From the UHGV virus genome UHGV-0214148: a DNA stretch of 64,000 nucleotides. One strand, given 5' to 3'. Position numbers and translations under genes: made by a program. Each line of letters begins with the position of its first letter. Within the stretch, counting starts at the first letter, position 1. Under the pieces are notes generated by a model, which saw only the letters and a list, made by a program, of their open reading frames with translations, did not search any database and was not told where the DNA came from. This document shows, piece after piece, positions 173-59,125 of this stretch. The DNA is from a virus.

Positions 173-562
173 TTAGCTACCTACGCTAGAGAGTATCCAA
201 TTGCTTTTGATAGCGTTAATTTGTTTAACTGATTCCCGAATGCCTTCAAACATTTTGATGCGCTCTGGCGTAGTAAGACATTGTTTAAGGTCTTTATCGA
301 GAGAGAACAACATTGCCAGTTTTGCAAGCGAAACACTCAAGATATCAGACAATTCGTTGTTTCTACGCCACTCTGGGTTATGGACGATAGTCACTAGAGG
401 ACCGATATCTTCACAAGAACATTCTTTGTTCAGTAGTTTGTCACGTTGCTCGCACAGATAAGTTTCATCTGTAATTAATCGTTCCAGGTCATCTTGACGT
501 GTGATAGCACGAGTAGAAATCATTAATACAACAAACGGGTCTTTAAATAATTCGTTTTTCAT
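173..562 (-). CDS. hypothetical protein; paralog of 58680..59051
   Basis: 129-aa ORF; N-terminus MKNELFKDPFVVLMI is identical to that of ORF 58680..59051; strong SD (AAAGGAG) upstream. Confidence 0.7.
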   Translation of the reverse strand: MKNELFKDPFVVLMISTRAITRQDDLERLITDETYLCEQRDKLLNKECSCEDIGPLVTIVHNPEWRRNNELSDILSVSLAKLAMLFSLDKDLKQCLTTPERIKMFEGIRESVKQINAIKSNWILSSVGS

Positions 563-615
563 TCTTAATACTCCTTTAGGTTAAACAGTCGAATAGCGTG
601 TAATTCTACAACGCT

Positions 616-640
616 CACCTAAGTAAAATATATCTAAGAT
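616..640. promoter_or_regulatory. AT-rich promoter-like motif CACCTAAGTAAAATATATCTAAGAT
   Basis: Near-identical copies at 59101 and 63484; lies between a terminator hairpin and the start of gene 173..562. Orientation unresolved. Confidence 0.4.
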
Positions 641-668
641 AATTTTCAATAGGGTTAAAATAAAGGTG

Positions 669-697
669 GGCTAGTCTATTCGATGAATAGACTAGCC
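669..697 (-). terminator. stem-loop terminator (GGCTAGTCTA / TAGACTAGCC)
   Basis: 10-bp perfect stem; A-rich tract on plus side gives a U-run on the minus transcript; downstream of gene 706..1257. Confidence 0.55.
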
Positions 698-705
698 GAA
701 TGGTT

Positions 706-1257
706 TTACTGCACGCACAAAATCTGACCTGAGTATTCGAAGGGATTTTCTGCGAATGTTCTGAGTTGTCGGCAAATGGCGTCAACGTCAGGCTCATCCG
801 TCCGCGTATAGATCGCGGTCCCGTTCTTTAACACCCACTCACGGCAATTCCGGCCATAGTCATCCACTAACAATCTCCCCTTATCAGCGTAAGTCGCTTT
901 TTCTGCAGAGCTTGTGGTTACGATAACTTTGTGACCAGGCACACCAAAGTGTTTCTCGAAGAATAATTTTTTACACTCAACAACACGGTCGTGATCGAAA
1001 TGGTCTTCCGAACCCGACGTTAATATCGCCCAGCATTCCCCCAGACTTTCTACCGTTTCGAGGATTTTTGCAGCCTCGGGTATAGGGTCTAGTTTATAGA
1101 AAAGATCCGGGTCCTTTAAATACATTTCCCGGACCAGTGCACGGCGGTGCAATTCCGGCATTCCATGAAATTCTTGTATGGACATTCCTTGAAAGTGGTG
1201 GGTCAACACGTATTTACGCCAACTCGCGAACACGCCGTCACTATCTAAATTGAACAT
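706..1257 (-). CDS. HAD-superfamily 5'(3')-deoxyribonucleotidase-like protein
   Basis: 183-aa ORF; N-terminal DSDGV (HAD motif I, DxDx[TV]); size and layout resemble the NT5C-type nucleotidase family. Motif-level only. Confidence 0.5.
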   Translation of the reverse strand: MFNLDSDGVFASWRKYVLTHHFQGMSIQEFHGMPELHRRALVREMYLKDPDLFYKLDPIPEAAKILETVESLGECWAILTSGSEDHFDHDRVVECKKLFFEKHFGVPGHKVIVTTSSAEKATYADKGRLLVDDYGRNCREWVLKNGTAIYTRTDEPDVDAICRQLRTFAENPFEYSGQILCVQ

Positions 1258-1323
1258 TTTTGATTATCCTTTTTGTAGAAGTTCCTCCGACACAATAACG
1301 GTAGAAATTGTAAAATAAAAAAA

Positions 1324-1623
1324 TTAGGACTGCTTAATCGAAAGAATGAACCGAAACGGTTCAGTTAACAAGAGGTAAGTACGTGTAAAGTCGATTTCGG
1401 TACCGGCTTGACGCACATCGCAATAAAATTTCGCGATATCTTGTTGTGAAATACCTGCGACAATGTTGTTGACTTTACGTTTGGTGTCAAAACGTTCAGC
1501 GAGTATCGAAGAAAGCACTTCCTTTCCAGCATGCTCTTGAACGGCATAGATTGTTAGTGCTTTCAATTCCTCAGGCGTTAAAGTTTGCAAAGTCGGAGGT
1601 ATGGCAATGTTAACCACTTTCAT
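1324..1623 (-). CDS. hypothetical protein
   Basis: 99-aa ORF in minus-strand gene train. Confidence 0.45.
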   Translation of the reverse strand: MKVVNIAIPPTLQTLTPEELKALTIYAVQEHAGKEVLSSILAERFDTKRKVNNIVAGISQQDIAKFYCDVRQAGTEIDFTRTYLLLTEPFRFILSIKQS

Positions 1624-1672
1624 GCTTCCCTCACAATCGACAAATTCGGGTTGCAGACCATGAACTGGGCGA

Positions 1673-2311
1673 TTATGGAGTTACAGTGTATTCGTTTAAC
1701 GCAGCGTCAAAAATACCCCGAGAGATTTCTTTTGCATCAGAAATCGTAATCTGAGGTTCCCGTTCACTACACGCTACAGTAAGCTCGTAGAATGAACCAC
1801 CCTTTAATAGCTGGTTAGCATTCAAACGAACGTCTTGGTTAAGCGCTACTGCTAACGTGTGAGTGTATCCGTTGTTTGCCAGTCGAACTAAACGCAGTTC
1901 ACCGACCATACTGGGTTTAATTTCCCAGTTCGATAAGCGGTGAGGAACAATCCACACTTCATTAGCGCGGTAGGGTTCAGCCGACAGTTCTATCGAGGGC
2001 TGGACAACATCACGTTCGTCGAACCCATACAGATAAAAACGTGGCACAGCGGTTGTGGTTTCCGCAGGTGTAAAGTAGCGACGGACACCACGCAGGCAAC
2101 GTTCTAAATCGACAGAGCAGCAAATACGGGGTACCGTTTTGTCTTCGTCTCTGTAAACGCTATAAGGAATCCGAGGTGTGAAAACCGAAATCTTTCGATC
2201 GCTGATATGCAACGGGGCGCTATCTAACTTTTTCAAAGAAACTTTCTTTGCGGTGCGCGGCAGTTGTTGCTCTAACCACTTCACCAACGAAGGTTCAATA
2301 GTATCAGCCAT
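1673..2311 (-). CDS. hypothetical protein
   Basis: 212-aa ORF; stop immediately followed by start of the next downstream gene. Confidence 0.55.
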   Translation of the reverse strand: MADTIEPSLVKWLEQQLPRTAKKVSLKKLDSAPLHISDRKISVFTPRIPYSVYRDEDKTVPRICCSVDLERCLRGVRRYFTPAETTTAVPRFYLYGFDERDVVQPSIELSAEPYRANEVWIVPHRLSNWEIKPSMVGELRLVRLANNGYTHTLAVALNQDVRLNANQLLKGGSFYELTVACSEREPQITISDAKEISRGIFDAALNEYTVTP

Positions 2312-3115
2312 TTACCACTTCCCGTTACCTAAACCCATAACACGCAGGTTAGTTTTCTTATTAGCGATGGCCAGGTACTCCTGCGCTAACGCACGAACTT
2401 CACCACGACGAGATTCTGTCGCGATAGTAGACGTAGTGTTAGGATTTCGCAGAATGTCCTCCAGCGCCTGGAGGGAGACGCGACGGTCCAGCAGAACGCG
2501 TGTGGATTCTTGAGCCACCTTACTACCGCGTTGAATCGCAGAGTATTTGTTACAAATCTGCAACCCGTCTTCGATAACCCAGTCAAACGTTACCAGGCGA
2601 TCCAGGCGACGTGTTTTCACACCACCTACATAACCTTCACGTACGATTGCACGCAGAGAGAAACATACATTCTGGTGTGGGTTTTCGAGCGCTTCTGCTA
2701 AGTACGGACCACGTTCACGGTTCGGCTTAATCCAGCCCCAGATTTCCATAACTGGTAACCCGTTACAGGTTTGGTCGGTTGGAATCACTTCAACTTCACG
2801 AATGTGCATACAGACGTTTTTCGTCTCAATCCATTCGTTGCGATCGATCCATTGCGCTTCGGTCATACCGGGTTCTGGTGCCGGGTGATCTTCTTCCCCG
2901 AACAGATTCCCTGCTTTCACTTTACGCATAAAGATGTTCGAGCGTTCGAATACGTGCTTAGACTCGTTATAGGCGTAAAAAATCCCTTCCGAGTTAAAGA
3001 TATTCAAAGCACCCAATAGTACGCGGTAATAACCATCCGCGTCTTTCTCCAGTGTGGCTGGAGCGTTAACACCGGCTAACGCTACGCAGTTGTAACGCAG
3101 TGTTAAATTGTCCAT
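2312..3115 (-). CDS. hypothetical protein
   Basis: 267-aa ORF, directly abutting downstream gene (operon-like). Confidence 0.6.
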   Translation of the reverse strand: MDNLTLRYNCVALAGVNAPATLEKDADGYYRVLLGALNIFNSEGIFYAYNESKHVFERSNIFMRKVKAGNLFGEEDHPAPEPGMTEAQWIDRNEWIETKNVCMHIREVEVIPTDQTCNGLPVMEIWGWIKPNRERGPYLAEALENPHQNVCFSLRAIVREGYVGGVKTRRLDRLVTFDWVIEDGLQICNKYSAIQRGSKVAQESTRVLLDRRVSLQALEDILRNPNTTSTIATESRRGEVRALAQEYLAIANKKTNLRVMGLGNGKW

Positions 3116-3146
3116 TGTTTTCCCCGAGTAAAAGTAAAAGGTAAGA

Positions 3147-3881
3147 TTACCTCATAAACAAATCTTCGAGCGGTTCGGCACGCACCGGGTCAACCTGTAG
3201 CGCAGAACGAATACCACGTTTAAGTTCCACGTCCGCAAGCTTCGCCAGTCTCGACGTTTTGTTAAGTGAACCACTGCGCAATGGAATAAACTGCACAGGG
3301 TTGTTAAGATCGCTATCTTTCTTCAGCGTGTAACGGAAGAACGTTCTCGGATCACCCACTTTACGCTGCGTGTGCGCTGCGTAAACGTCAGCGGTAATCT
3401 GATCGGCAAATACAGTAAAACCGTTCCATTTCTTGACTTTATCAGGTGCCAAGAGTTCAGCATCATCCGCTGCAGTAAACCAGAAAGGACGATTACCAAA
3501 GTCGTAAATATACGACGCAATGTTGTAAATAGGGTGAGACAACACCTGTAAATTGCGGTTGGGGAAAACCACTGTACCGGGATCAAAACGAAATTCGTAA
3601 TAAGGAACACCAAAGACGTCGATCTCTTCAAACGCCGTTGGGGTAATCTCCATAAGCGTTGTCACGCTGGACACCCCATATGTTTTACGGTCGGTAGAAA
3701 TCGCAAAGATCCCTACAATTGTTACCGTAGAAGAAATAACCGCCAACTCTTTCGCCACAAACCCAACGGGGATGTAAATGTAACACCCCCCTTTGGTAGT
3801 GGTGACCGTGCCGTTATTTACCAAGTCCGCATGAACCTTAGTAGGGTCACGACGGGCTGTTTCAATCGCACTCACGATCAC
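3147..3881 (-). CDS. hypothetical protein
   Basis: 244-aa ORF. Confidence 0.55.
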   Translation of the reverse strand: MIVSAIETARRDPTKVHADLVNNGTVTTTKGGCYIYIPVGFVAKELAVISSTVTIVGIFAISTDRKTYGVSSVTTLMEITPTAFEEIDVFGVPYYEFRFDPGTVVFPNRNLQVLSHPIYNIASYIYDFGNRPFWFTAADDAELLAPDKVKKWNGFTVFADQITADVYAAHTQRKVGDPRTFFRYTLKKDSDLNNPVQFIPLRSGSLNKTSRLAKLADVELKRGIRSALQVDPVRAEPLEDLFMR

Positions 3882-3893
3882 CTCCTAAGCGCG

Positions 3894-5354
3894 TTAAAGT
3901 TTATCGACAAATACTGAACCTGCAATCCAGTTCAGTACATAGTCAATCATCCAACTGGTTGCGGCTTCTGCCGGGTCGGTGTTCTCAATCATCGCGGTAT
4001 GAATCGCACGCATCAGCGGATCAATTTCGTAGGCGCAGAATACGGCGTTACATGCAGTCCGGATGATAAACAACGTAATGTCTTCGTCTGCGTTGACAAA
4101 GAAATCATCACAAATCCCCATAACAACCTGTTTGACTTCTTCGCGAGTGCGCGTCAGTTCACCAACAGTCAGGTAGCCCTGGTCGAGCTGGTCGATTGCA
4201 ATCGAGAACGCAGTTTTCAGTGCCTGGCGGTTACGACTTACCCAGTCGAGTTCATTTCGTTTCTGAACGATAATTGCACGACGATTGTAAGCTTCAACGT
4301 AGGCTTTCTGGTTTTCCAGCAGAGACGCGACACGTGCGGAAACGTTATAGTCGCCTTCGTCCATCAGGTAAATGGCACCCAGCAGGGCTTCAACGATACC
4401 GCCTTTTTCCAGGTAGTCATCCATCGTTTCCTGACAGATATAGACGTTTTTCTCGTTGGTATCGTAAGAGTAAACGATGTTACCTGTGGCGACACGGTTA
4501 GCCACTGCTTTTTCAAAGCCGTATACCCAACCGATAGACGTGTAATAGGCACGACCCATTTCCGCTTTCCATTTCAGGGCGTCAACACCTGAGTCAGGCC
4601 ACGGACGTTCAATGAAGAACGAAGACAACAGCAGCACCAGAACACGTTCTTTTACCATTTCCGGTGCTTTATCTGCAACAGGTACGGTGTAGTTACCTGC
4701 CAGCAGCAGTTTTGCTGCATCGTACATGCTGAGGTTCAGGTCGTTCAGTAATTTACGCACCAGCTCATCGTACGCTTTTACACCTGTTTCCGGAATCTCG
4801 ATGTCGGTCGGTACATCGAACTTGATTGGGTCGTAAGTCGTACCGTTACCCATCGGGTTGGCGATTTCTTGAATCAGCGCCTGGACAACTGGGGAATCCA
4901 CACACGGATCGATACCTACCGGAATCAGGTTCCAGTCTTCGACCAACGGTTTGACATCTTCAATCGTGTTATTCTGGATAACCAGCTGCACAAACGGTTG
5001 AACAACGTTACGGGCAAAGTCCAGCATCCCGTTGCAACGCTGAATGGCCATGTTCTTCAGTTCGAATAACGTGGTTTCATGATCGTCAACACGCAGTGCT
5101 TCAACTTCAACAGCACCGTCACGAATAATCGAAGCTTCTGCCGTACCGTCTACAGGACGTTTAAGCTGCGTAATCGCGGGCAGTTCCTGGAAGAACTGTT
5201 CGTCGGTGATTGTGGTATCGAAAACGCGGGTAGGGTCGACCGCACGGTTGAGCAAATCAACCGGAGAGTCAACGTCTGTGCCAAGCTGAACATTATGCTG
5301 TTTGCACAGTTTCATGGCGTTAGTAACCGCATTCAGCGAGTATAAACTGATCAT
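3894..5354 (-). CDS. hypothetical protein (possibly virion-associated)
   Basis: 486-aa ORF; 4-bp overlap with upstream gene start; no recognisable catalytic motif. Structural role is a guess from position beside the RNAP block. Confidence 0.55.
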   Translation of the reverse strand: MISLYSLNAVTNAMKLCKQHNVQLGTDVDSPVDLLNRAVDPTRVFDTTITDEQFFQELPAITQLKRPVDGTAEASIIRDGAVEVEALRVDDHETTLFELKNMAIQRCNGMLDFARNVVQPFVQLVIQNNTIEDVKPLVEDWNLIPVGIDPCVDSPVVQALIQEIANPMGNGTTYDPIKFDVPTDIEIPETGVKAYDELVRKLLNDLNLSMYDAAKLLLAGNYTVPVADKAPEMVKERVLVLLLSSFFIERPWPDSGVDALKWKAEMGRAYYTSIGWVYGFEKAVANRVATGNIVYSYDTNEKNVYICQETMDDYLEKGGIVEALLGAIYLMDEGDYNVSARVASLLENQKAYVEAYNRRAIIVQKRNELDWVSRNRQALKTAFSIAIDQLDQGYLTVGELTRTREEVKQVVMGICDDFFVNADEDITLFIIRTACNAVFCAYEIDPLMRAIHTAMIENTDPAEAATSWMIDYVLNWIAGSVFVDKL

Positions 5355-5644
5355 TGTTTAACCTCTTTATTCGTGCTGATGTTCGCCTGAAGCATCGCGT
5401 ACAAACGCGCGCCCACCAGATCTGCGATATCACGTTTCAGCAGTTTCTGATCACCGATACGGTCAGACATTCCTGAGTTACCGCGAATCAGACCATGCAC
5501 AATCTCCGTTGCTAATTCGACAGTATTACCTAAAGACACGTAGTTGGTACGTTGAATGGGACTGTATCCCTCCACGTTTTGCTGGGTAATATTTTTCCCA
5601 GTCGGAATACCGTGTCGCTGTTTGATTTTATCTAGAATAGACAT
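5351..5644 (-). CDS. hypothetical protein
   Basis: 97-aa ORF, translationally coupled to 3894..5354. Confidence 0.5.
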   Translation of the reverse strand: MSILDKIKQRHGIPTGKNITQQNVEGYSPIQRTNYVSLGNTVELATEIVHGLIRGNSGMSDRIGDQKLLKRDIADLVGARLYAMLQANISTNKEVKQ

Positions 5645-5665
5645 TCTCTTCTCCGGAGTTTACAA

Positions 5666-5684
5666 GGGTGGGAGCGACCCACCC
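5666..5684 (-). terminator. stem-loop (GGGTGGG / CCCACCC) downstream of the RNAP beta-like gene
   Basis: 7-bp GC stem; weak U-run, so may be a stability or attenuating element rather than a full terminator. Confidence 0.3.
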
Positions 5685-5691
5685 CTCGAGA

Positions 5692-8600
5692 TTATTTAAG
5701 TGTCGCGGGTAAATCAGGCACAGCTTCCCCATCGAGTATACGCCCGATGAGAATCCCGGCTTGTTCACCTACAGCATTCGCGGTACCGATACGTTGGATT
5801 GAACCTACGATACGCGCATCGACGGAATCACGACCGAACAACACGTCCAGGTCATCACCATCCTCTGTTTTGTTATCCCCGTACATGACTTCTTGTACGG
5901 TGGTTTTTAGCTGGTTAGCAATAACCATCTTATCCGCAGCGGCCATCTCAACGTCGTGTGTAATAAAGAATCGAACACAAAGTGAGTTAAAGGCCAAGGG
6001 TACACCTTCGACACGGTAGTCGCCGTTTACACTACCTGAAACCGGATCACCGCGTCCGACTGCCAGTGCGGCTTTACGACGAATTCTGTCGTATTTACGC
6101 ACCAGCTCAGCAAGACTTGGCGTCATGTCTTCGGTTTCACCGTGATACACCACTTCGATTTTATCCACGATACCACGTACCCCTGCACGAGGTGCGTACG
6201 AACTTAAACTTTGCAACGTTGCGGCTGCTTCCTGACTAAAGGCACTCATATCGCCCGTCAAGTCGTCAGTAAACGTGCATAGGATTGTATCGACGTCTAC
6301 GTGGTCGCCCTCATTCACGATTTCCAAAAGCATCTGGTTGCTGTTAATCGTCACTTCTTTCAGCTTTGTTACCTGCCCCACCATTTTCTTCGCGAACCGT
6401 TCAGAAATTGCGTTGGAGTCTTCGATAACTTCTTCAGCTTCTAATAAAGCAACGGTGGCCAGCACCCCGTTTTTCCAGGAAACCTGAGTAGGATCGTAAA
6501 TATCAGGTTCAAAGTGTTGCTCGTTGTACGTAATCACTGCCCCGGCCGGGAGCTTGTCACCGGCTTTCCAGCGTGTTACCAAGGTGTGCGGATAGAAGGT
6601 ACCTTCGTGGGGGCCGAACCAGCGCCCTAGAGGAAAGGCTTCTTTACTTCCATCTTCGTACGTAATTTCAATGTGGTCTTTCGACAGACCAGTTATCTTA
6701 CCTGCTTTATCAATAACGCGTGCATGTTTCACCGAAGTACGGTGAGCGACGAATTTCTCCTGTTCAGTACGATACGGGGTTGTGGTTGCCCCATTACAAC
6801 TGGTGGCAGAACCTAACTGAATCCCAACGAAGTTCTGACGTTTTGCATCGTCCATTAACGTATCGGGTACTAACCCGTCAATAAACGAAAGAGTATCGCT
6901 TGGTTTCGGGGTTTTCTCTTCACGCTTAAACGTGGTACCGTCAACGGTGTCAAAACGTGGGTTATTGGTGACGAAAGCAGTAATCCCTACGTCGCCGTTA
7001 TCTACGGTGTTACCCGAGACTATCCCGATATCACTGGGTTGGAACTCACGTGTGTGGTAGACCATCGTTTTACGATTACGACCACCTGTACCCCCCATCG
7101 TAATAACGTCTTTTTCTTTAATTGACTGGATAGGGTTAGCGCCTGGTGCCAAAAGTACCGACGGGTCGGAGTTAATCGCACCCCAAACCATATCTTGCGT
7201 CAGTTCGAACTTACGGTTACTGCCCGGTGCGTTATTGTAGTTACGCATCGCTCTGACCATCGCAGTATAGATGTGGTAGGCAATCCTCTGATTTCCTAAG
7301 AACATCATTTCGTCGCCGTTAATCTCTGGTAAAGAGTGGTCAGTTTGTAACAGTTCGTTAGAACGTTCCAGCAAGCCAATAAAGGTTTCCGGCTCACCCA
7401 TTTTCCTGAGGATACGTGCGTGCATGTCGTCAACAAACGCGGACCGCATCTGTTTCAGCTCGTTGATGTACCGTGGCGTTAGGCCATCTGCTTCACGTAA
7501 TAAGTTCAGGTAAATGTCTTCGCGGTCTGCTTCTGATTCGGTATAAGCAACCAGGTGTTTGAGATAGCGATCCAAACCATGCAGAATCATCCTCTGCTGA
7601 TCGTTATCGCAAGTAACTAAAAGTTTACAGTCTTGTAGTCGAATAATACTGTCGTAGGCATTCTTATCAACACGTTGCCCTGCAGGAACCAACTCGTATT
7701 GGATACCGAAATGTTTCAACATTCCCTGGAGTCCAAGATAGAACGAGAAGATAAAACCAAGCGACAAAGATTTACCCATCAAAGACAGCTCGGTCATTTC
7801 GCGAGGCACTTTCTGGTTATTAAAGCCCAGTACCTCTGCGATAGTTCCCACCGGTTCAACTTTGTTTCCGTTCACACCGTAAAGCATGGATTTGTCATCC
7901 ATTGCCAGGATTGTTTCACTACGCGGACGTTTCGCCACTGGTAAAAGTTTGGCAGCATCGGCGTCTCTGAGTTGCTCGTCGTTAAAGAAGTTAACGGCTT
8001 CTTTGTAGTCGAAGTTCCACATATAGCCATTCGCATTAAAGCTGGCAATACGACGTGCAATCTCCGTATACTGACGAGGCAGATGTTGCGTAGGATCGAA
8101 CACATTTGCTAAACGTGCATCGGTGACTTCGGTGTTTGTCGGGTCAACGGCGCGTGTGATAATCGCGTTGGTTAACCAACGACCGTAATCGTTCGCGACC
8201 TTATCACTACGACGGACAAAGTTTTTACCGTAAGCGGTAGTCAGTGCGACAGTATCCGGTGCAACCTTACGAATCGGTAAGTCCACACGTTGGCGACGCA
8301 TGGTGTATTCGACACCATTAGCGACCCAAGTACCGTCCTCGGTCAAGCCTGGGATAGAGAAGCGAACGGTTGTTGGCTCACCGCCGACTGGCTGAACACG
8401 TAAAGTGTGATGCTCGATAGTTCCTGTAACAGAAACTTCTTTTTCCACCGTGTGGTTGTGAACCGCCAGACCCAAACGTTGTGAACTGGCGACCGCCGCC
8501 AGTACGTCTTTGGTCATCATGGTCTGGTTGTATTGTTTCACCATCTGGTCGGTGACGTTCTCTGCCCACCCTTCATCGGTAACAAGCCGCTGAACTTTTT

Positions 8601-9858
8601 TCGGTTCGGCTTTAACGACAATATCTTTCTCGTGAACAGTCAGTGCTTCCCCGTAGGTTTCTTTCGGGTTATACGGGTTAGGTAGCTGAACGAAACGTTT
8701 AGACGATTCTGACAGGAACTGATATGCTTTAGAACTTAAGCGGCCCGCTTCAGCTAAGCGTTGTGCTTCCTGTTTAATAATCTCGTCATGTGGAATGACT
8801 TTCTCGACGACGATGGTCGTCGGTTTGACGTCTTCCTTCGGTTCTTCAATAACAACGTCTTCTTTTTCATCGAAGGTGTTATCGGACTCCACCACAGCGT
8901 CATTAACAACATCGTCATCGTCGACAACATCAACGGTTTCTTCTTCGACGTCTTTAAGGAAAACACGCTCGTCGCCTTCAGGCGTTAGGAATTCAGCTTC
9001 GTACGCGTTAGACGGTGCTTGTGTCATTACACGCACCAGCGTACGGTAGAACATCCTGGCCATTTGGTCATCACTTAAACGACCGCCGGACGACTTACGC
9101 ATTTTCTCTACAACACCCATGTTCATGGACGTAAAGCCCGTGTTGTGGGTGAAGATAAAGTTCATTCGTGACAGCTGAGTTAAATCCATTCCCGAGAATA
9201 AGGAATCGGATTGTTTTCCATAAGCCCAAGCAAACAACTCCAATAACCACAGCAAGTTAAAGTCCTGGAACTTCTCAATCTTGCTCTTAACGCGGTCGTT
9301 ATAGGTTGTTTGAAACTTCTGGAACGAAGGTAGAGTCGAACCCAGCTCAATAACGAAATAGTTCTGACGCATGTATTCTTGCGTGTCGTATTTGAACTGG
9401 TTAATCATCAACAGTTGGATGTTACGCAGTCTATCGTACCAGGCTAACTGGGTATCAGGATAGTAGTAGTGCGACAACATCGGTGTGTAGTTCTCGACCA
9501 GGAGAACTTTTAAGTCTTTGCGAACCAGATCGTCTGAGGTAAGACGACGCATTGGTCGGTTTGCACGGTGGTAAGCAAAGATAGCACGTTCTTGACCCTG
9601 AACAGGTTTGTTGCGCGGATGACCGCTAATACCGTCTTCCGGTAATTTAAAGTGGTGACGAACCTGTGCAGGTTTTTCTAACGGTTGAATAATCTCGAGT
9701 GTTGCAGGTGGCGCTAATACCACCTGGTCGAGATCAATGACATGGAGTACAGAACCACGTGGTATCTGTAGCTTCTCGAGCGGGATAATCCTCGGATTAC
9801 CAAACTCGTCAGTTTTACGCACCGAGAAGCGTTGGTTAAACTGTTTAATGAGCAGCAT
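5692..9858 (-). CDS. multisubunit RNA polymerase beta-subunit-like protein (N-terminal/central portion)
   Basis: 1388-aa ORF. [19 protein letters not shown] resembles bacterial RpoB [34 protein letters not shown] resembles FLEHDDANRALMGANM (bacterial sequences quoted from memory). Contains an acidic insertion ([12 protein letters not shown]). Adjacent to the beta-prime-like gene. Confidence 0.6.
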   Translation of the reverse strand: [1388 protein letters not shown]

Positions 9859-36741: not shown

Positions 36742-37641
36742 TTATTTCCCACGATAAAATCCAGAGATGTAACTCGGCGCTATCCATCGCCATTCGCGCC
36801 AGCGCATTTCTGACATTTTACCACACCATACACGCTTCCAATGCGCACGACGGATATGTGCGGCGCAATAAATCGCCAAACAAACCTCGTGTCCTTCCTT
36901 GCGTTGCTGCTCTATATCTTCCCATTGTACCGGACTTACATCTAAAACGACTGCTTCACTACGTGGGCGAATTTCTGTATCAGGAACATAACGAATGGAC
37001 CTTCCGCGAAATTCTTTCTTCTCGCGCTCAGTTCGTTTAATTCGTGACGAAAGATATAGCCCGATGTAGACCGCGTCGAGTAGTCGCTGATTCTCCTTAA
37101 CCGAAGTAAGGAGCGGCTTTAACTCCACGAAATCATCATTACTTTTATCGATCGTGTAAATCTCAAACTCCATGTATACCGACTCGCCATGTTCTTCGCA
37201 TGACATCACAAAGAGAACTTCTTCACCTTCGTAAAGACGTCTTCCGATAAATAACGTGATTGGACTTTCGTCGAGATTTACATTAACCGAGAAAGTAAAT
37301 GAAGGGATGGTTTCTATCCAGAAGTACGGGATATTTTTTAGTCTCTCAGTTTTTGCTAAGAGCGCCATCAGTTCTTCATCCGAGATGATTTCAACAGCAG
37401 CGTATTGCCATCCTAGTCCCAGAGACTGCTTAATCAGTCTGGGAATCTGTTCGGTAACACCATACTCACGATAGGTCGGATCTTTAACTGGCATAAACGT
37501 TACGGGTATTTGACGTTTATGCTCGTTAATGAACCGAATAAAACGACACTGATCTAATCCGTGAATTGTTTGGTGTGCCTTTTCTATTTGTTCACTCATG
37601 CGTCTTAGCGCTTTCCCGTAAAGTCTATTATTCGTTGTCAT
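36742..37641 (-). CDS. hypothetical protein, paralog of 37667..38593 (Trp/Arg-rich C-terminus)
   Basis: Start moved to internal ATG at 37641 (AGGAG SD; avoids 131-bp overlap). C-terminus AAHIRRAHWKRVW... parallels AAHIRRAHWRRYW... in the neighbour. Confidence 0.6.
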   Translation of the reverse strand: MTTNNRLYGKALRRMSEQIEKAHQTIHGLDQCRFIRFINEHKRQIPVTFMPVKDPTYREYGVTEQIPRLIKQSLGLGWQYAAVEIISDEELMALLAKTERLKNIPYFWIETIPSFTFSVNVNLDESPITLFIGRRLYEGEEVLFVMSCEEHGESVYMEFEIYTIDKSNDDFVELKPLLTSVKENQRLLDAVYIGLYLSSRIKRTEREKKEFRGRSIRYVPDTEIRPRSEAVVLDVSPVQWEDIEQQRKEGHEVCLAIYCAAHIRRAHWKRVWCGKMSEMRWREWRWIAPSYISGFYRGK

Positions 37642-37666
37642 TTTAATACTCCTAAACACTTTTAGC

Positions 37667-38593
37667 TTAATTGTGGGGTACGTAGCCACGGACAAATGTA
37701 GGTGGAATCCAACAAAGTTTTCTCTTTCTTTCACCATTTCTAGGGCCGACCCAATATCTGCGCCAGTGTGCGCGACGGATGTGGGCAGCCTTAGCATGTT
37801 TGATACCTTGCATGGTTTTCAAGTCAGTGTTAAACCCTTTTAGATAATTCACTTGTCCTGGCGTGATATCTATCTTAACATCGCGTTCACGAGGTTTAAC
37901 GTCGTAACTAATACTACCGTTCTTTTTGATTTCCTTGAACTTAATATCATTAAAAGACTCCCTGTAATTGGGCGGGATTAGCGTACACAGAAATATCATC
38001 GAAGTAGCGGCTTTGGCCAGAGATAACCATAGCATCTTTTCTTGTTCGGTCCGTACGCCAGTTGTATAATCGATTTCAACAAGCCCGTTTCCAACACTAC
38101 ATATCTCTAACGAGCAGGTGGCGATTGTGGTAACGCCTTCTGTTAACCCGTAATCAGTATTTGTAGCGATTATAATAAACCTTCTTTTCCCATTTTTTCG
38201 ATAGCCGAGAAAGAAAGTCTCATCCTCTTTACCTACGTCGATTGCTACAGTCCATGTGGGTATAAAGTCCAACCATTCTTCAGGGAATTTACTGGGCATC
38301 TCAGTCTCGAAAACAAGTTCTCTAAGTGCTTGGTTGGATATTAAGGAAGCACCACCGTATAGCCATCCAATTGCCAATGTTTGAGCGTGAAGGGAACGGG
38401 GATCTTTGAGACCTAACTCAGCGTCGTAAGGTATAAAGGCATTGGTTAAATGGTTACGATTCTTTTTTATCCATTTCGAGACAGGATTTTCCTTTATTCG
38501 GTTTTCTTCCATGACATTTTCAAGATGCTGAGACCCCATTTGTCTAAGGCAGTCTTTAATACCTTTTACTTTTTTACTTTTGTACAAATACAT
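37667..38593 (-). CDS. hypothetical protein, paralog of 36742..37641
   Basis: 308-aa ORF; shared internal blocks (LGLGWQYAA / LAIGWLYGG) and C-terminal AAHIRRAHW motif. Confidence 0.6.
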   Translation of the reverse strand: MYLYKSKKVKGIKDCLRQMGSQHLENVMEENRIKENPVSKWIKKNRNHLTNAFIPYDAELGLKDPRSLHAQTLAIGWLYGGASLISNQALRELVFETEMPSKFPEEWLDFIPTWTVAIDVGKEDETFFLGYRKNGKRRFIIIATNTDYGLTEGVTTIATCSLEICSVGNGLVEIDYTTGVRTEQEKMLWLSLAKAATSMIFLCTLIPPNYRESFNDIKFKEIKKNGSISYDVKPRERDVKIDITPGQVNYLKGFNTDLKTMQGIKHAKAAHIRRAHWRRYWVGPRNGERKRKLCWIPPTFVRGYVPHN

Positions 38594-47027: not shown

Positions 47028-47579
47028 TTAAATGTCGACTTCTAGTTTACGGTAATCGATGACGCCTTGAGCAATCATAGCAGCAACATCGTTCCAGGTA
47101 CGAAAAATGAAGTAAACTGTGTCTCCGTTTAAAAAGATGTTAGATTCTTTATCCGGGAAATCATCTTCACTGAGGTAGTAGTAGGGTTTGTCGAATGGGA
47201 AGTCGCGCTCATCAGAGGAACCAAGTACCGCATAACGATTGCCACAATCAAACAGAATCTTCCAACCAGACATTTCACTATTAGCGTCAATACGATCGTC
47301 GATTTCAACGGTAATAGGAGAACGATCAAGAAAGCTGATTGTAACCTCCCCGTTATGCTGTCGTTTAAATCGACGAATATCTGTAGGCACAATTTCAGAT
47401 GCTGCTATAAGGGAATAAAGTTGTGTTACGGTGATCTTTTTGTAAACACTATCGCCATCCCACAAACGATCAAATAAGAAATTAGCCAGGAAATTTATAT
47501 CCTTTAAACGTGTGCGGAAAACAGAACCACGGCGAATACCGTAAGCCAGATGAGTTAAATATTCAGACGATGGAAACAT
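47028..47579 (-). CDS. hypothetical protein, paralog of 47641..48573
   Basis: 183-aa ORF; N-terminus MFPSSEYLTHLAYGIRR parallels MTFPSEVIYELANTLRRR; conserved SD context. Confidence 0.55.
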   Translation of the reverse strand: MFPSSEYLTHLAYGIRRGSVFRTRLKDINFLANFLFDRLWDGDSVYKKITVTQLYSLIAASEIVPTDIRRFKRQHNGEVTISFLDRSPITVEIDDRIDANSEMSGWKILFDCGNRYAVLGSSDERDFPFDKPYYYLSEDDFPDKESNIFLNGDTVYFIFRTWNDVAAMIAQGVIDYRKLEVDI

Positions 47580-47610
47580 TTTAATACTCCTAAGGTGGAA
47601 AAAGAATTAA

Positions 47611-47632
47611 CCCTACTCCCGGAGGAGTAGGG
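47611..47632 (-). terminator. stem-loop terminator, CCCTACTCC/GGAGTAGGG stem family
   Basis: Same 9-bp stem as 27649 and 46993; between the paralogs 47641..48573 and 47028..47579. Confidence 0.55.
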
Positions 47633-47640
47633 GATTTAAA

Positions 47641-48573
47641 TTACTTTTTGGTTTGACCAAGGTTTTCAAGAACCAGTTCACGAATGTACTTCTGAGTACG
47701 TTTTTTCGGCGGTAGAGCCATAAGAGTGTCAACGATTCCCTGGCCGCCGATAACCTTGCTGACGAGTTGTTGAACTTGGAAGAGTTCTGCTTCTTCGTCA
47801 CTGATCTCATTAGCTTGGTCTTTCTGACACAACGCTTCTACCAGGTCAGCTACGGATATTTCATTTTCGTCACCGGGGAAATCCAGGTTTAACGATTCGA
47901 AAACATCACGCTTAACGAGTACAGATTTCAGATCATCGTAGTTTTCACAAACGGCGACTTCTGTGCCAGGTACCGTTTCTTCTTCGTCTTGATCTTCATT
48001 CTCAGAGGCGAAGTAACTTACTTCTGTTGCGTGGAACGTTGCGTCAGCTTTTCTCAGTACGTAGCTCACATGCGACCAATTGCTCAGGATGAAGTAGACA
48101 ACACCCCCAATTAATCCGATGTTGCCCTGGCGAAGTTCGAGAGCAATTTCCAGGCGGCGTGAAATCTCACCCAAACCAAAGAAAGTCTCGTCGCAGGCCG
48201 CAACAACTTCGTACTGATTCACTCCTTGTTCTACAACAACGTACCAGTTATCCGGGAGAGGATACGGGTTGTGCATGAAAGAAAGTTCGTTCCCTGCGCC
48301 TGGGTCAACAGTAACGGATGTATGGCGCATTCCCATGGAGAAGTTGAACGTATCCCCGTTTTGAACCGCAATTGCACCGTCAATCGGAAGAATTTTGGTG
48401 GCACGATCAATAGAGAAAATCGCTTCCTGTGTAATTGAAGACTGATTACTGCCTAGGAAGTGATTACGCAGAAAAGCAGCGGTTTCACCTACAGTGGTTT
48501 GTAGCATATGGTAGTTATAACGACGACGCAGCGTGTTAGCCAGTTCGTAAATTACTTCAGATGGAAAAGTCAT
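47641..48573 (-). CDS. hypothetical protein, paralog of 47028..47579
   Basis: 310-aa ORF; acidic insertion (ENEDQDEEE); followed by a hairpin with the same stem as the one after its paralog. Confidence 0.55.
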   Translation of the reverse strand: MTFPSEVIYELANTLRRRYNYHMLQTTVGETAAFLRNHFLGSNQSSITQEAIFSIDRATKILPIDGAIAVQNGDTFNFSMGMRHTSVTVDPGAGNELSFMHNPYPLPDNWYVVVEQGVNQYEVVAACDETFFGLGEISRRLEIALELRQGNIGLIGGVVYFILSNWSHVSYVLRKADATFHATEVSYFASENEDQDEEETVPGTEVAVCENYDDLKSVLVKRDVFESLNLDFPGDENEISVADLVEALCQKDQANEISDEEAELFQVQQLVSKVIGGQGIVDTLMALPPKKRTQKYIRELVLENLGQTKK

Positions 48574-49167: not shown

Positions 49168-49172
49168 AGAAG

Positions 49173-52341: not shown

Positions 52342-52360
52342 TTCCGGATTATTTGGGCGT

Positions 52361-52459: not shown

Positions 52460-52470
52460 ATTCCCTTCTC

Positions 52471-52656
52471 CTAATTCCGCCATTCGCATTCGCGTTGACG
52501 CCAAATTGAACCCCACGATAGTTTAATCAGATAAGATGAAACTACCCATAAAATCATCACCACACAAAACATGACATAAAGAACCGCTAGAATGGACATG
52601 AAGCCAAACCCTGCCGCATCCACAATACGACGGAACCAATCAGTTTGCATAAACAA
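52471..52656 (-). CDS. small membrane protein (61 aa)
   Basis: Track ORF; long hydrophobic core FGFMSILAVLYVMFCVVMILWVVSSYLI; GAAGGAG SD. Confidence 0.45.
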   Translation of the reverse strand: MFMQTDWFRRIVDAAGFGFMSILAVLYVMFCVVMILWVVSSYLIKLSWGSIWRQRECEWRN

Positions 52657-55144: not shown

Positions 55145-55194
55145 ACCCACCTCCATAAAGACGGAGTGTGGTGTAAAAAGAAAAAAATAAAGAA

Positions 55195-55218
55195 AGGGAG
55201 AACCCGAAGGTTCTCCCT
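55195..55218 (-). terminator. stem-loop terminator (AGGGAGAACC / GGTTCTCCCT)
   Basis: 10-bp stem, CGAA loop, long A-run on plus side; between gene 55223..55831 and the ATPase gene. Confidence 0.6.
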
Positions 55219-55222
55219 AACG

Positions 55223-55831
55223 TTATTTGGTATACAGCTGATAACCCATTGAAGCCCAATAATCAATGTTCTTCGCGTTTTCTACCCAAACCTGTCCCGC
55301 CTTTGTGGCTAAGACTTCCATTGTCAATGTACAGATCAGATTTGTTACCTGGATACAATTTCCAGGTGTAACATCATCCAGATAAACCGGATATAAAAAC
55401 GGCGATTTAATGGATTGGTACGGGTAAGAATAGTGGCTACCGACTTTCCACCCTTCTTCTACAGGGCAGAGATTATAAGTGCGTGTTTCAGGAACTGCGT
55501 TTTCAGAGATCCAGTTAACAACATCGGCTTTGATTCGATCGTGGTCGATATAGTAGAACACAACACGTTGTGGGATACTTGTGGTACCAGCCGGGTCTAA
55601 AGCCTCCAACGCCTTAAAAGGCGACGTTAACAATGTTGTACTGTTCTCAAGTGCGTAAACCAACTTTTCGTAAGCGGTTGGCGTTTTGCGTTTAAAATAT
55701 TCCCGTAAGCGAGGGTACGCCAGGAAGCCCTCTACTTCTTCTTCCATTAAGTCAATGAATAAAGGCGTATGCGAAAATCGCTCTGCATTTTGCATCGCTT
55801 CAAGAAAACGAACTAATGTAATTTCGTTCAT
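55223..55831 (-). CDS. hypothetical protein
   Basis: 202-aa ORF upstream of the ATPase; no Mre11/SbcD phosphoesterase motifs seen. Confidence 0.55.
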   Translation of the reverse strand: MNEITLVRFLEAMQNAERFSHTPLFIDLMEEEVEGFLAYPRLREYFKRKTPTAYEKLVYALENSTTLLTSPFKALEALDPAGTTSIPQRVVFYYIDHDRIKADVVNWISENAVPETRTYNLCPVEEGWKVGSHYSYPYQSIKSPFLYPVYLDDVTPGNCIQVTNLICTLTMEVLATKAGQVWVENAKNIDYWASMGYQLYTK

Positions 55832-55861
55832 CTGGTCTTTCCTTTTAGATCAAAAAAAGAA

Positions 55862-55879
55862 GCCCCGAGTAAACGGGGC
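55862..55879 (-). terminator. stem-loop terminator (GCCCCG / CGGGGC)
   Basis: GC stem preceded on plus by AAAAAAAGAA. Confidence 0.5.
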
Positions 55880-55887
55880 CGGGCTAA

Positions 55888-56364
55888 TTACAGCCCTAAG
55901 TGCGTGAGTGATAAAATAGGTTGTGTTTCACCTTTAATCGTCGCGAAGGAACGATACATTTCTGCGTTACTTGAAAAAACTTCGTTAGCAACGATACATT
56001 CACCCGTCTCTAAAGAAAGGAGATAAATGTAGTCGCTCCATACGCTTTGTACCAACACCCACTCAAGTGCGGTATCATTTTCGCGTGTTGTTCGCAGGTG
56101 GTGAAAGTAAGGACGGATCGCATCAACTGCCGCATTAAAACGACGGTGATAAATTCGGGTTAAATCAAAGGTCCAGATTGTTTCCAGGTCGACTGGATGT
56201 AATGTGCGCACCGTTTCGATAATCGTCGACTGATCGTTAAGGCGCGAGGCTTCGGCGATACGTAGCAGTTTCCAGGCTACCGTTAAGTTGTGGCGAATTT
56301 GTTCAGGTTTAGCCGACAGGTCATGATGAAATTGCGCAGCTTGGTAAACGTTAGATAATTGCAT
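55888..56364 (-). CDS. hypothetical protein
   Basis: 158-aa ORF with conserved SD context; flanked by terminators. Confidence 0.55.
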   Translation of the reverse strand: MQLSNVYQAAQFHHDLSAKPEQIRHNLTVAWKLLRIAEASRLNDQSTIIETVRTLHPVDLETIWTFDLTRIYHRRFNAAVDAIRPYFHHLRTTRENDTALEWVLVQSVWSDYIYLLSLETGECIVANEVFSSNAEMYRSFATIKGETQPILSLTHLGL

Positions 56365-56401
56365 TTTAATACTCCTTTAGGTAAATATGTCGTAAAAAGG
56401 A

Positions 56402-56418
56402 CCCCGGACGTACCGGGG
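56402..56418 (-). terminator. stem-loop terminator (CCCCGG / CCGGGG)
   Basis: GC stem preceded on plus by an A-rich tract; downstream of the secreted-protein gene block. Confidence 0.5.
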
Positions 56419-56430
56419 CCAAGACTACAC

Positions 56431-56820
56431 TCAAAGATCTAATTCGATAGCACCAGCCATCTTGCCCCGTTCTTCTATAACGATCAGATAACGGTCGCGA
56501 GATTTGCTTTTAGCGAGAGTTAAGACAACGGTAGGGTCGCACGTTTTCGTGGTGATAGGAAGAACCTCTCTTGCGACGGAATCGAGCAGAAAGTAATAAC
56601 CTGCGGGACACATTGTGCCGCCATCAGCTTTTACCAGAATATAGCGCCCGTCTGCGCCGACTTCTTGGCAGATTGTTTCACCGACTTCGCAAACTTCAAA
56701 CCCCGGAGGATTGTACTGGTAATCGGTATTGTTGTTTGGGGTTAGCAGTAAATCGTTAACTTGAGTAGATGCTGCTACACTCAGGGAGAAGAAGAATGCT
56801 AAAACGCAGACGAGACGCAT
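56431..56820 (-). CDS. small secreted Cys-containing protein (paralog of 56831..57241)
   Basis: 129-aa ORF; signal peptide MRLVCVLAFFFSLSVAAS; mature part has CQ...G.RY...GG..C pattern shared with neighbour. Confidence 0.55.
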   Translation of the reverse strand: MRLVCVLAFFFSLSVAASTQVNDLLLTPNNNTDYQYNPPGFEVCEVGETICQEVGADGRYILVKADGGTMCPAGYYFLLDSVAREVLPITTKTCDPTVVLTLAKSKSRDRYLIVIEERGKMAGAIELDL

Positions 56821-56830
56821 GAGTTACTCC

Positions 56831-57241
56831 TTAAATTTTAAGTTTATCCATAGCTACAACGATAGGTTTTTCCGAAGTGTCTAATATCCCTACCATTGGC
56901 ACACCATCTACGACTTCGAAGAATGGTTTGTTATTACCAGAGCATAGACGTTTGTCGTTGTATTCGAGACGCTGAGCCTTCCACGTTTCGAGGTTGAGTA
57001 CGGACATTGGGCTGTCGTAGCACCAGGCACCACCTTGCTCAACGATGAATACGTATCTGCTACCTTTGTATTTAAACAGGCTCTTTGCCTGGCAGTACAA
57101 CCCGTCTATTTCCGTACAATAGAAATCATCGGTGCTATTGACGTACTTAATATTGTCTGGCAACTGTATTGTCTTTGCTGTAGCGTTGACAGAGAACAGA
57201 ACAGCCATTGCAATGAGAAGAGTATTAATGATAGTTTTCAT
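56831..57241 (-). CDS. small secreted Cys-containing protein
   Basis: 136-aa ORF; signal peptide MKTIINTLLIAMAVLFSVNATA; shares Cys pattern with 56431..56820. Confidence 0.55.
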   Translation of the reverse strand: MKTIINTLLIAMAVLFSVNATAKTIQLPDNIKYVNSTDDFYCTEIDGLYCQAKSLFKYKGSRYVFIVEQGGAWCYDSPMSVLNLETWKAQRLEYNDKRLCSGNNKPFFEVVDGVPMVGILDTSEKPIVVAMDKLKI

Positions 57242-57252
57242 GATAAAAGTCC

Positions 57253-57738
57253 TTAGTATTTAGATTGTTCTACGTACTTCTTAACCAGGTAAGCGAATTC
57301 GGCAACACCGATATCACCGAACCAAATCAGGTAACCGGGGTCGATGTTGTAGTAATAACCGACGAGTTTCTTGGTGTGTGGGTTGTATAGCGTTACGATG
57401 TATTCCCAACCACAAGCGTTAGCTTTACAACCGCCACTTTCAATCCAGATTTTGTTGTTGATGTTTACCGGATACATGTTACCGCCAGGGCCATCCATGT
57501 AACCTTTAGAGCCGAACATACCATCCAGTCCCACAGGGTCTAGTGTTTTATCAACAACGGCTTTAAACGACTTATCGGTATCGTACAAGTCGTTGATGTT
57601 TGGGCACGCATTTGGCTGGCCTTCCCAAGCGTTTCCATCACAGGTAAGCAATTCGTCTACGGAGGCCGCATCTACAGTTGGCGTGGCACCGATAAACAAG
57701 AAAACCAGAAAGAACATCAGTGTATGTAAACGTTTCAT
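57253..57738 (-). CDS. small secreted Cys-containing protein
   Basis: 161-aa ORF; signal peptide MKRLHTLMFFLVFLFIGATPTVDA. Confidence 0.55.
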   Translation of the reverse strand: MKRLHTLMFFLVFLFIGATPTVDAASVDELLTCDGNAWEGQPNACPNINDLYDTDKSFKAVVDKTLDPVGLDGMFGSKGYMDGPGGNMYPVNINNKIWIESGGCKANACGWEYIVTLYNPHTKKLVGYYYNIDPGYLIWFGDIGVAEFAYLVKKYVEQSKY

Positions 57739-57756
57739 TGTAACTACTCCTTTAGA

Positions 57757-58149
57757 TTATTCGGCAGGACGATTTAAGGTAACGCGTCCGATTAATTCAG
57801 CGTTGTGAAAGAAGTCCACAGCGGTATAGTTACCAACTGATAGCGGATGGATACTAACTGACATTACTTTTGGTTGTTCGCAGGCGATATCCGTCAGGCG
57901 TTGGTAGACTTGTGCACGAGTGTCAGCAATGAGTAATCCCGTACACGTTTCACCACGCACTAAACGATAAACTTGCAGTTTACCGAAACTGCGCATTAAC
58001 GTAGGCGTCTCATCCGGGTTGATAATCGGTGACTCAGGAGCCGGTTCGTAATAGCGGACATCCGAATCACCGAAAGCATAAGTGCCAGTAATTCCGACCG
58101 CACAGAAAACAATGATAGTATAAAGTATAGTTCTGATATTCATTTTCAC
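57757..58149 (-). CDS. small secreted protein
   Basis: 130-aa ORF; signal peptide MKMNIRTILYTIIVFCAVGITGTYA. Confidence 0.55.
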   Translation of the reverse strand: MKMNIRTILYTIIVFCAVGITGTYAFGDSDVRYYEPAPESPIINPDETPTLMRSFGKLQVYRLVRGETCTGLLIADTRAQVYQRLTDIACEQPKVMSVSIHPLSVGNYTAVDFFHNAELIGRVTLNRPAE

Positions 58150-58171
58150 GCACTCTAAAAAAGATTAATAC

Positions 58172-58633
58172 TTATTTGTTAGGACGGGTGTGTCCACAGT
58201 TCTGGAAGAAAGTTTCAGATAAACGATCGCCTTCTACGGTAAAGTTAGCGGCATCGTTACCATTGATACTCACACTGAAAGTTTTGGCATTACCGATAGC
58301 AATAACGAAAGCAACCCAAGCGTGTTCTGCCTTGTCGCTACCGTCCACGGTAGGGATGTTATAGGTTTTGCCGTTTACGACAATATCCATCGTGTTATCT
58401 TCAGCGTTAGTTGCACCTACGGGTTCCCCGTAATACCAAACCATGCGACCGTAAAATTTGCGATTCACAGTTTCTGTGTCACAGTTGATAGACAGTCCGT
58501 TTCCGGCGGTGTCTTCGATTTCGTAAACTGCCTGGCCAGGGTTTTGTATTTGTTCCCAACTATTGATTGCAGCGTATGCGCTATTGAGGCCGAAAGTTAA
58601 AATGGTTATTAAGAATGTGATAAAGGTTTTCAT
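58172..58633 (-). CDS. small secreted protein
   Basis: 153-aa ORF; signal peptide MKTFITFLITILTFGLNSAYA. Confidence 0.55.
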   Translation of the reverse strand: MKTFITFLITILTFGLNSAYAAINSWEQIQNPGQAVYEIEDTAGNGLSINCDTETVNRKFYGRMVWYYGEPVGATNAEDNTMDIVVNGKTYNIPTVDGSDKAEHAWVAFVIAIGNAKTFSVSINGNDAANFTVEGDRLSETFFQNCGHTRPNK

Positions 58634-58679
58634 TGAAATGCTCCTTCGAGTTATGGGGAAGCTCCCACAAATTATGAAA

Positions 58680-59051
58680 TTAAATAACTGTGTTGGGTAA
58701 TGCTTTAATCTGTGTATAACTATCTCCGATACCTCTTATCATTTCCAGACGCTCTTCTGTAGAAAGGCTTTGGTTAATGTCTTTGTCAAGATTGAACAGT
58801 GTCAAGAGTTTTGCAATTGCAACCGTCAAGTTGTCGGACAGCTCGTTGTTTTTACGCCATTCTTCGTTACGGAAAATAGAGATAAGGTCTTTCGCCTGGC
58901 CTTCAGCGTGCGGTTTGGCTAACTGCGCGTCACGCTGTTCGATAAGGTATGCTTCGTTAGTAAGTAAACGTTTCAGGTTTTCTGGGTTAGTGGCAGCGCG
59001 AGTAACGATCATTAATACAACAAACGGGTCTTTAAATAATTCGTTTTTCAT
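58680..59051 (-). CDS. hypothetical protein; paralog of 173..562
   Basis: 123-aa ORF; N-terminal 15 residues identical to ORF 173..562; homologous upstream region. Confidence 0.7.
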   Translation of the reverse strand: MKNELFKDPFVVLMIVTRAATNPENLKRLLTNEAYLIEQRDAQLAKPHAEGQAKDLISIFRNEEWRKNNELSDNLTVAIAKLLTLFNLDKDINQSLSTEERLEMIRGIGDSYTQIKALPNTVI

Positions 59052-59100
59052 CTTTAGTTCTCCTAAAATGGTTTTCGTTAAGTGAGAGCTTTTGTACTCT

Positions 59101-59125
59101 CACCTAAGTAATATATATCTGAAAT
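59101..59125. promoter_or_regulatory. AT-rich promoter-like motif CACCTAAGTAATATATATCTGAAAT
   Basis: Between terminator hairpin 59158..59177 and the start of gene 58680..59051; preceded by imperfect inverted repeat AGTGAGAG/CTCTCACC. Confidence 0.4.

Follow-up and report, generated by a model that had tools for sequence, protein, structure and literature searches.

Diverged paralogues of a fast-evolving gene family behind predicted early promoters at two loci of an SPN3US-like jumbo phage

The 64,000 nt stretch of the viral genome UHGV-0214148 analysed here (the window) contains two small genes lying around 58 kb apart on the minus strand, copy A (173..562) and copy B (58680..59051), which encode proteins of 129 aa and 123 aa respectively. 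The pair is best explained as diverged paralogues of a small, fast-evolving family with dispersed loci, a product of ordinary gene-family evolution, and we regard this account as a whole as distinctly probable. A first-pass annotation had reported both open reading frames (ORFs), and clean reverse-strand translations confirmed them; a plus-strand reading was rejected, as the frames at the same coordinates are riddled with stop codons. The paralogy that it proposed is borne out by BLASTP, which aligns the two proteins without gaps at 68 of 123 identical positions (55%, E 1e-46), as is the reported identity of residues 1-15 (MKNELFKDPFVVLMI).

Paralogous genes and their origins

At the nucleotide level, positions 1-44 of the coding sequences are identical, whilst positions 46-369 share 59% identity. 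Degenerate codons at conserved residues behave similarly: 12 of 13 match between the copies within the first 15 codons, whereas 23 of 51 (45%) do so elsewhere, an excess at the 5' end with a binomial estimate of about 5e-4. Comparison of the window with itself by BLASTN detected only two internal repeats, namely the gene pair (68% identity over 395 nt) and a 26 nt promoter match, and the family profile (A3) recovered no paralogues in the window other than copies A and B.

The gene content and order of the window match those of the Salmonella jumbo phage SPN3US between about 162 kb and 224 kb. The 1388 aa product of ORF 5692..9858 (minus strand), which has no match in Pfam, is 77% identical to the SPN3US protein annotated as an RNA polymerase beta subunit, a likeness through which the genome is seen to encode subunits of a virion multisubunit RNA polymerase; an S80 prohead protease is also encoded in the window. 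The neighbour of copy A is 63% identical to its SPN3US counterpart and the downstream neighbour of copy B is 51% identical to its Seoulvirus counterpart, and the two loci correspond to positions at approximately 165.7 kb and 223.3 kb in SPN3US, the same spacing of around 58 kb. No close cultured relative was detected by megablast in the phage collection, the best match having around 73-74% identity in conserved genes. Metagenomes, as well as assemblies of Salmonella and Enterobacter isolates, contain near-identical relatives on contigs of 223-228 kb. Near-complete genomes of the lineage (223-228 kb, proteins P0003-P0031) lie within many Salmonella enterica and Enterobacter isolate assemblies; the presence of a jumbo phage in assemblies of cultured isolates suggests a carrier state or contamination.

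The first-pass annotation had also raised the idea that the copies lie near the two ends of a circularly permuted or terminally repeated replicon. A single sequence seen twice, whether through a long terminal repeat, circular permutation or assembly duplication, would fit the identity of the first 44 coding bases, the similarity of the promoter modules and the contig of one relative (L019), which stops 83 nt upstream of the B-locus gene, as assemblies do at repeats. However, the 68% identity halts at the gene borders, with no other repeat of such a kind in the window, and the flanking genes are unrelated; nothing resembling a near-identical multi-gene stretch at replicon ends was found. Synteny with SPN3US places both positions inside the genome, with the same spacing as the orthologous positions in SPN3US, and the genomes of relatives extend to 223-228 kb. 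The very high nucleotide identity that would mark an assembly artefact is likewise absent, and both loci, with several alleles each, were found again in many independent assemblies and occur together on the single contig IMGVR_UViG_3300029126_000001. We consider a single duplicated sequence to be extremely improbable; the A/B repeat is neither a marker of genome ends nor an assembly problem.

The two paralogues are new members of the existing hypothetical family PHROG 27024, both matching phrog_27024 (E 2.9e-11 over residues 1-71 for copy A, and E 6.5e-11 over residues 1-94 for copy B). By synteny, copy A is the positional orthologue of SPN3US ACQ60_gp017 (YP_009153543.1), which the family profile recovers at E 8.6e-40, and it occupies the conserved position four genes downstream of the S80 prohead protease, with three intervening genes. 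It shares only around 24% identity with gp017, as against 77% for a core gene such as the polymerase subunit, and therefore the family evolves much faster than core genes. When the family was compared with Seoulvirus and Erwinia phage genes by tblastn, matches were found at E 8e-9 to 9e-7, and only 11 clusters at E<=1e-3 were recovered when 1.84 billion representative proteins were searched with a profile. At the sequence level, the family is confined to SPN3US- and Erwinia-type jumbo phages with their own multisubunit RNA polymerases.

Judged from these comparisons, copy A is the ancestral member of the family, and copy B a lineage-specific extra copy located at the upstream border of a conserved block of genes. 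In Seoulvirus genomes, tblastn detected one family place per genome and no gene at the position equivalent to copy B, where the boundary upstream of the orthologue of the 130 aa gene carries only an early promoter. Copy B, 58 kb away, does not lie downstream of the prohead-protease cluster. Orthology of the upstream neighbour of copy B to the Seoulvirus neighbour was considered and rejected, since BLASTP detected no homology; as no counterpart to this gene could be detected in Seoulviruses whilst the downstream block is conserved, copy B is placed where a variable region meets a conserved block. Hence SPN3US gp017 and the genes described here share their family, the position of copy A, the upstream series of terminator, promoter, hairpin and Shine-Dalgarno sequence, an N-terminal DPFV motif and a central WRxxN motif, but Seoulviruses have one detectable copy of the subfamily plus the distant gp016, whereas the lineage of the window adds a dispersed second copy and many alleles.

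Copy A is directly followed by an older, very divergent tandem paralogue. The next gene (<1..171, minus strand) is cut by the window edge, leaving its N-terminal 57 codons, and its ATG lies one base past the copy A stop codon. The SPN3US orthologue of this gene is ACQ60_gp016, and linking the gene to the family as a distant third paralogue required a wider profile and hhalign: full-length relatives align with the family profile at a probability of 92% (E 5.4e-7, 91 columns), and gp016 itself is detected in SPN3US by the family profile with hmmsearch (E 3.2e-5). On this basis there are three family members in this genome.

Predicted early promoters and leader hairpins

Upstream of both copies, the order of terminator, motif and Shine-Dalgarno sequence that had been noted at first pass is real, comprising hairpins, a shared 22-mer (AGATATATWTTACTTAGGTGAG) and an AGGAG Shine-Dalgarno sequence. 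On the copy A side, an intrinsic-terminator-like hairpin with a 13 bp stem (669..697, minus strand) ends the upstream 183 aa gene; on the copy B side, a similar structure composed of an 8 bp GC stem and a T run (59158..59177, minus strand) ends the upstream 192 aa gene. These are followed by the predicted early promoters of copy A (AGATATATTTTACTTAGGTGAG; 614..635, minus strand), identified by motif search, the published consensus and the orthologous site of SPN3US gp017, and of copy B (AGATATATATTACTTAGGTGAG; 59099..59120, minus strand), identified by motif search, each of which is succeeded by a stem-loop opening the 5' leader. That of copy A (595..615, minus strand; AGCGT...ACGCT) is weak (z-score -1.1) and has a 5' arm overlapping the GTGAG of the promoter; that of copy B (59078..59107, minus strand) is a strong 12 bp structure formed on GGTGAGAG/CTCTCAC, and the 71 nt leader folds at -19.9 kcal/mol (z-score -5.75). 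Each gene would thereby head its own early unit, with a preceding terminator, a promoter with a TATATTAC core used by the virion-packaged polymerase, a leader stem-loop, a Shine-Dalgarno sequence and the ATG.

The 22-mer occurs three times in the window, always in intergenic sequence and on the coding (minus) strand, where no occurrences are expected by chance; the third site (63482..63503, minus strand), found by motif search, heads an unrelated unit. SPN3US has seven sites, all on the plus strand (4430, 56297, 65416, 94242, 113989, 165690 and 223280), the motif also precedes unrelated genes in Erwinia phage phiEaH2, and the early promoter is found in SPAsTU and SPFM2. Megablast of the intergenic stretch at copy B matched unannotated intergenic DNA of the Erwinia phages phiEaH2, Stratton and Asesino, the phiEaH2 promoter site being the sole megablast match of the copy B region. 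The element is thus one that recurs on the coding strand before several unrelated operons and is conserved in related phages.

In sequence, it is a promoter of the known phiKZ type. The cores TATATTTTAC and TATATATTAC, followed by TTAGGTG, fit the phiKZ early consensus TATATTAC, the corresponding motif in phage 201phi2-1 being TTTRARR_BTATATTACDWHDGTG (PMC7058600 Table 2). Such motifs, predicted bioinformatically, have proved to be early promoters in every profiled jumbo phage encoding its own RNA polymerases (reviewed in PMC7598289), and those of the phiKZ type have been attributed to the virion RNA polymerase (PMC7598289; differential RNA sequencing of phiKZ, PMC8244752). By analogy, copies A and B would be driven by virion RNA polymerase promoters and expressed early. 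As in the phiKZ-like phages, the core includes a downstream GTG, and the sites are intergenic, on the coding strand, ahead of small non-structural genes and recurrent both through the genome and across related genera. They are fewer, however: three per 64 kb here and seven strong sites in SPN3US, in comparison with 31 in N1M2 and 32 in phiKZ (PMC7058600; PMC8244752).

The motif might instead be explained as a sigma-70 promoter of the host, or as a repeat of a purely structural kind, and in both copies TTGAAA or TTAAAA does precede TTACTT by 17 nt, resembling weak -35 and -10 elements, whilst the phage promoter is known in this lineage from its sequence alone. Yet a sigma-70 scan gave no coding-strand site upstream of either gene, and conservation peaks at TATATWTTAC and the following YTARGTGAG, which is unlike a sigma-70 promoter. 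In addition to fitting the published jumbo phage early consensus, the motif is conserved at the nucleotide level between genera that are otherwise around 73% identical or less. A sigma-70 or structural origin is accordingly rated as very unlikely, and the phiKZ-type early promoter is preferred.

The further claim of the first-pass annotation, that the upstream regulatory region is duplicated, is not supported by closer comparison: the likeness between A and B is limited to around 40 nt of promoter consensus and the Shine-Dalgarno sequence, whilst the terminators, leader hairpins and remaining parts of the leaders differ. As the same module precedes unrelated genes in the window, phiEaH2 and SPN3US, it represents a generic layout of early units and gives no evidence of co-duplication.

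The hairpin is itself a regular part of this layout. All 14 early promoter sites that were folded have one directly 3' of the promoter (mean z-score -3.5), the mean minimum free energy being -10.4 kcal/mol, compared with -5.5 kcal/mol for random 36-mers. The 5' arm usually employs the conserved GTGAG, with a 3' arm that varies by site, including that at 63450..63480 (minus strand). These GTGAG-based hairpins, present after every site tested, distinguish the modules from phiKZ-like promoters, for which the cited promoter literature makes no mention of a hairpin. Their role may lie in stabilising the mRNA from the 5' end, or they may form part of promoter function. Neither Rfam nor tRNA scans of the window gave a match.

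Several other features of these units were observed. At the third promoter of the window (63482..63503, minus strand), an 11 bp GC-rich hairpin follows (99 nt fold, -35.1 kcal/mol, z-score -4.7), and downstream there is a 26 aa ORF (63400..63320, minus strand; MSTKKKESLNELLKRLKDYTPFSTFR) succeeded by around 200 nt of non-coding sequence before the gene at 63112; this unit (63320..63503, minus strand) may produce a micro-protein or a structured early RNA. At the Seoulvirus equivalent of the copy B site (SPFM2 L022 3404-3500; SPN3US 165687-165790), the promoter, hairpin and a terminator-like hairpin with a T run precede the next gene, and may represent a short early RNA or an attenuator. A separate motif, AATCGACYAT, occurs 11 times on the plus strand of SPN3US and never on the minus strand, mostly 15-30 nt before start codons (e.g. 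L001 3969-3979, 4848-4858), and a version of it follows all seven SPN3US early promoters. This motif may be a leader element or belong to a second promoter class; it was dropped as a component of the units described here, as there is no enrichment in the window.

Allelic variation and exchange between the loci

Both loci differ sharply between otherwise closely similar genomes. When the A locus of the window is compared with that of the sister genome L023, the flanks are 90-100% identical, but the gene body is only 36-48% identical, with identity returning to 92% right past the stop codon. Among sister genomes at the B locus, identity is 80-96% for most flanks and 45-65% for the gene body. At least four allele types were found at the A locus and at least three at the B locus (P0027, P0031 and P0020 all being alleles of the latter), and the C-terminal two-thirds of the proteins are 19-51% identical between types. 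The variable segment is bounded on its left just after the promoter module and first codons, and on its right by the next gene, where there is no second module.

The positions at which alleles diverge are not constant. Allele P0020 (L018) lies at the B locus and has the B-type terminator, promoter and leader; however, 125 of the first 126 positions of its coding sequence are those of the A-type allele of L006, after which it becomes B2-type. This tract of A-type sequence in a B-locus allele therefore indicates gene conversion between the loci. The A-locus allele of L008 is A-type to around nt 140 and novel thereafter, and in the alleles of L023 and L024 divergence starts after nt 32-35 or so. 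The block ATGAAAA(A/G)CGAATT(A/G)TT(T/C)AAAGACCCGTTTGTTGTA(T/C)TAATG is nearly invariant in seven of the nine allele types examined (A1, A2, B1, B2, B3 and the chimera). The two loci accordingly behave as hypervariable cassettes, in which the promoter, leader and first 11-45 or so codons are kept, whilst the remainder is swapped or strongly diverged. The identity of the first 44 nt in copies A and B would then result from recurrent recombination between the loci ending in this block, in combination with protein constraint on the N-terminal DPFV helix, which is conserved out to the homologues of SPN3US and Erwinia-type phages.

Selection at the nucleotide level, acting on an A/U-rich unstructured initiation region, a regulator site or an mRNA localisation signal, could also have kept the 5' block without gene conversion. 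The block is near-invariant even in alleles whose proteins are only 45-50% identical, and that of the copy A allele of the window differs from B2 at one of 42 nt, below the divergence of orthologous flanks (around 5-20%); furthermore, it is A/T-rich, as is usual for efficient translation-initiation regions. On the other hand, SPN3US retains the DPFV peptide with synonymous changes (GAC CCC TTT GTT GCC) and differs over the rest of the 5' end, the L023 and L024 alleles have already diverged after nt 32-35, the 126 nt conversion tract from A to B extends well past the block, and no Rfam family matches. We judge it doubtful that nucleotide-level selection rather than conversion kept the block, although it is a serious competitor, and the two explanations are not exclusive.

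Diverged paralogues exchanging sequence between two predicted early units remain the preferred interpretation, but four points weigh against it. The invariant 5' block could reflect mRNA selection instead of recombination, since sister genomes so closely related, with so few variable sites, do not allow the two causes to be told apart. Other genes of the B region are also mosaic, so that hypervariability is not unique to this family. As BLASTP detects no homologue of the gene upstream of copy B at the Seoulvirus position, the proposed insertion of copy B behind a resident promoter is deduced from the downstream flank only. Finally, no transcript data for this phage or SPN3US were found in the literature searched, and the assignment of the promoter and of early timing comes from consensus matching and analogy.

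Variation in the neighbourhood of copy B also extends to individual genes. A 153 aa ORF (58172..58633, minus strand) with a signal-peptide-like N terminus (MKTFITFLITILTFGLNSAYA) separates copy B from the conserved 130 aa gene; it has a weak match to phrog_3429 and is missing from the sister genomes L010 and L014, which indicates a recent indel in the same hot spot. Three adjacent ORFs encoding proteins of 184, 383 and 257 aa (59773..62351, minus strand) have a common C-terminal domain (BLASTP E 5e-12 and E 6e-8), and the 383 aa gene contains a mosaic segment around 47-65% identical to sister genomes between flanks of over 90%. Elsewhere in the window there are two further pairs of adjacent paralogues, encoding proteins of 351 and 308 aa (36742..38593, minus strand; 25% identity, E 1.5e-20) and of 183 and 310 aa (47028..48573, minus strand; 25% identity, E 6e-6).

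The protein family and its possible role

The AlphaFold 2 model of copy A is confident (pLDDT 84, pTM 0.78) and entirely helical, with nine helices, and the protein is predicted to have an all-helical orphan fold. Searches for function by homology gave only sub-threshold noise in Pfam and nothing in NCBIfam or in a sequence profile search of the PDB, and a Foldseek search of BFVD with the protein model found only an uncharacterised Erwinia phage protein. A literature search on the SPN3US orthologue (gp249) found nothing relevant.

In view of the early-type promoters, the insulation by terminators and the hypervariability between near-identical genomes, the proteins are probably non-structural early accessory factors acting on the host, to judge from this context. 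They could alternatively be virion or ejection proteins, the N terminus acting as a capsid-targeting sequence or a propeptide processed by the protease: only three genes separate copy A from that of the S80 prohead protease, and many small proteins are packaged in the virion of SPN3US (PMC7411985, PMC10052503). This sits poorly with the possession by each gene of its own early-type promoter and with the terminators separating them from upstream genes; moreover, the genes around copy B are non-structural hypotheticals, assembly components are not usually hypervariable, and the literature search revealed no link between gp249 and the virion. There seems little chance that the proteins are virion components. 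As non-structural accessory factors, they might more specifically participate in host takeover or counter-defence, a suggestion that the genomic context makes plausible and that we advance tentatively, at somewhat less than even confidence. The variable C-terminal two-thirds would in that case be shaped by diversifying selection.

In how they evolve, these loci come closest to the promoter-early stem-loop (PeSL) cassettes of T4-type phages (Arbiol et al. 2010, PMC2839356; Comeau et al. 2014, PMC4122927), the resemblance being one of behaviour and not of membership. In both cases an intergenic, composite module of promoter and stem-loop or terminator flanks small non-essential ORFs in variable regions; in T4-type phages it bounds indels and gene replacements between close relatives, as it may also do here. 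The differences are that the promoter here is of the jumbo phage type and not sigma-70-like, that the recombination boundary takes in the first codons of the gene, beyond the intergenic module, and that there is no evidence of mini-circles. By analogy with these cassettes, the module may have a role in recombination here. It is conceivable, if on balance unlikely, that the early-promoter module and first 14 or so codons constitute a portable homology arm, PeSL-like but non-sigma-70, in SPN3US-like nucleus-forming jumbo phages.

The regular design of promoter, leader hairpin and Shine-Dalgarno sequence provides a simple route to the annotation of early units in SPN3US-like phages. In nucleus-forming jumbo phages, early genes are active before the protective shell is formed, making them prime candidates for takeover or counter-defence functions, and most are uncharacterised; the combination of hypervariability, a conserved N-terminal motif and exchange between loci makes this family a reasonable candidate for functional screening. 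If the homology arm does exist, it would move and swap the variable C-terminal cassettes of an early effector among dispersed loci and co-infecting phages, maintaining a lasting reservoir of alleles (at least seven types in this case) on which host defences impose diversifying selection.

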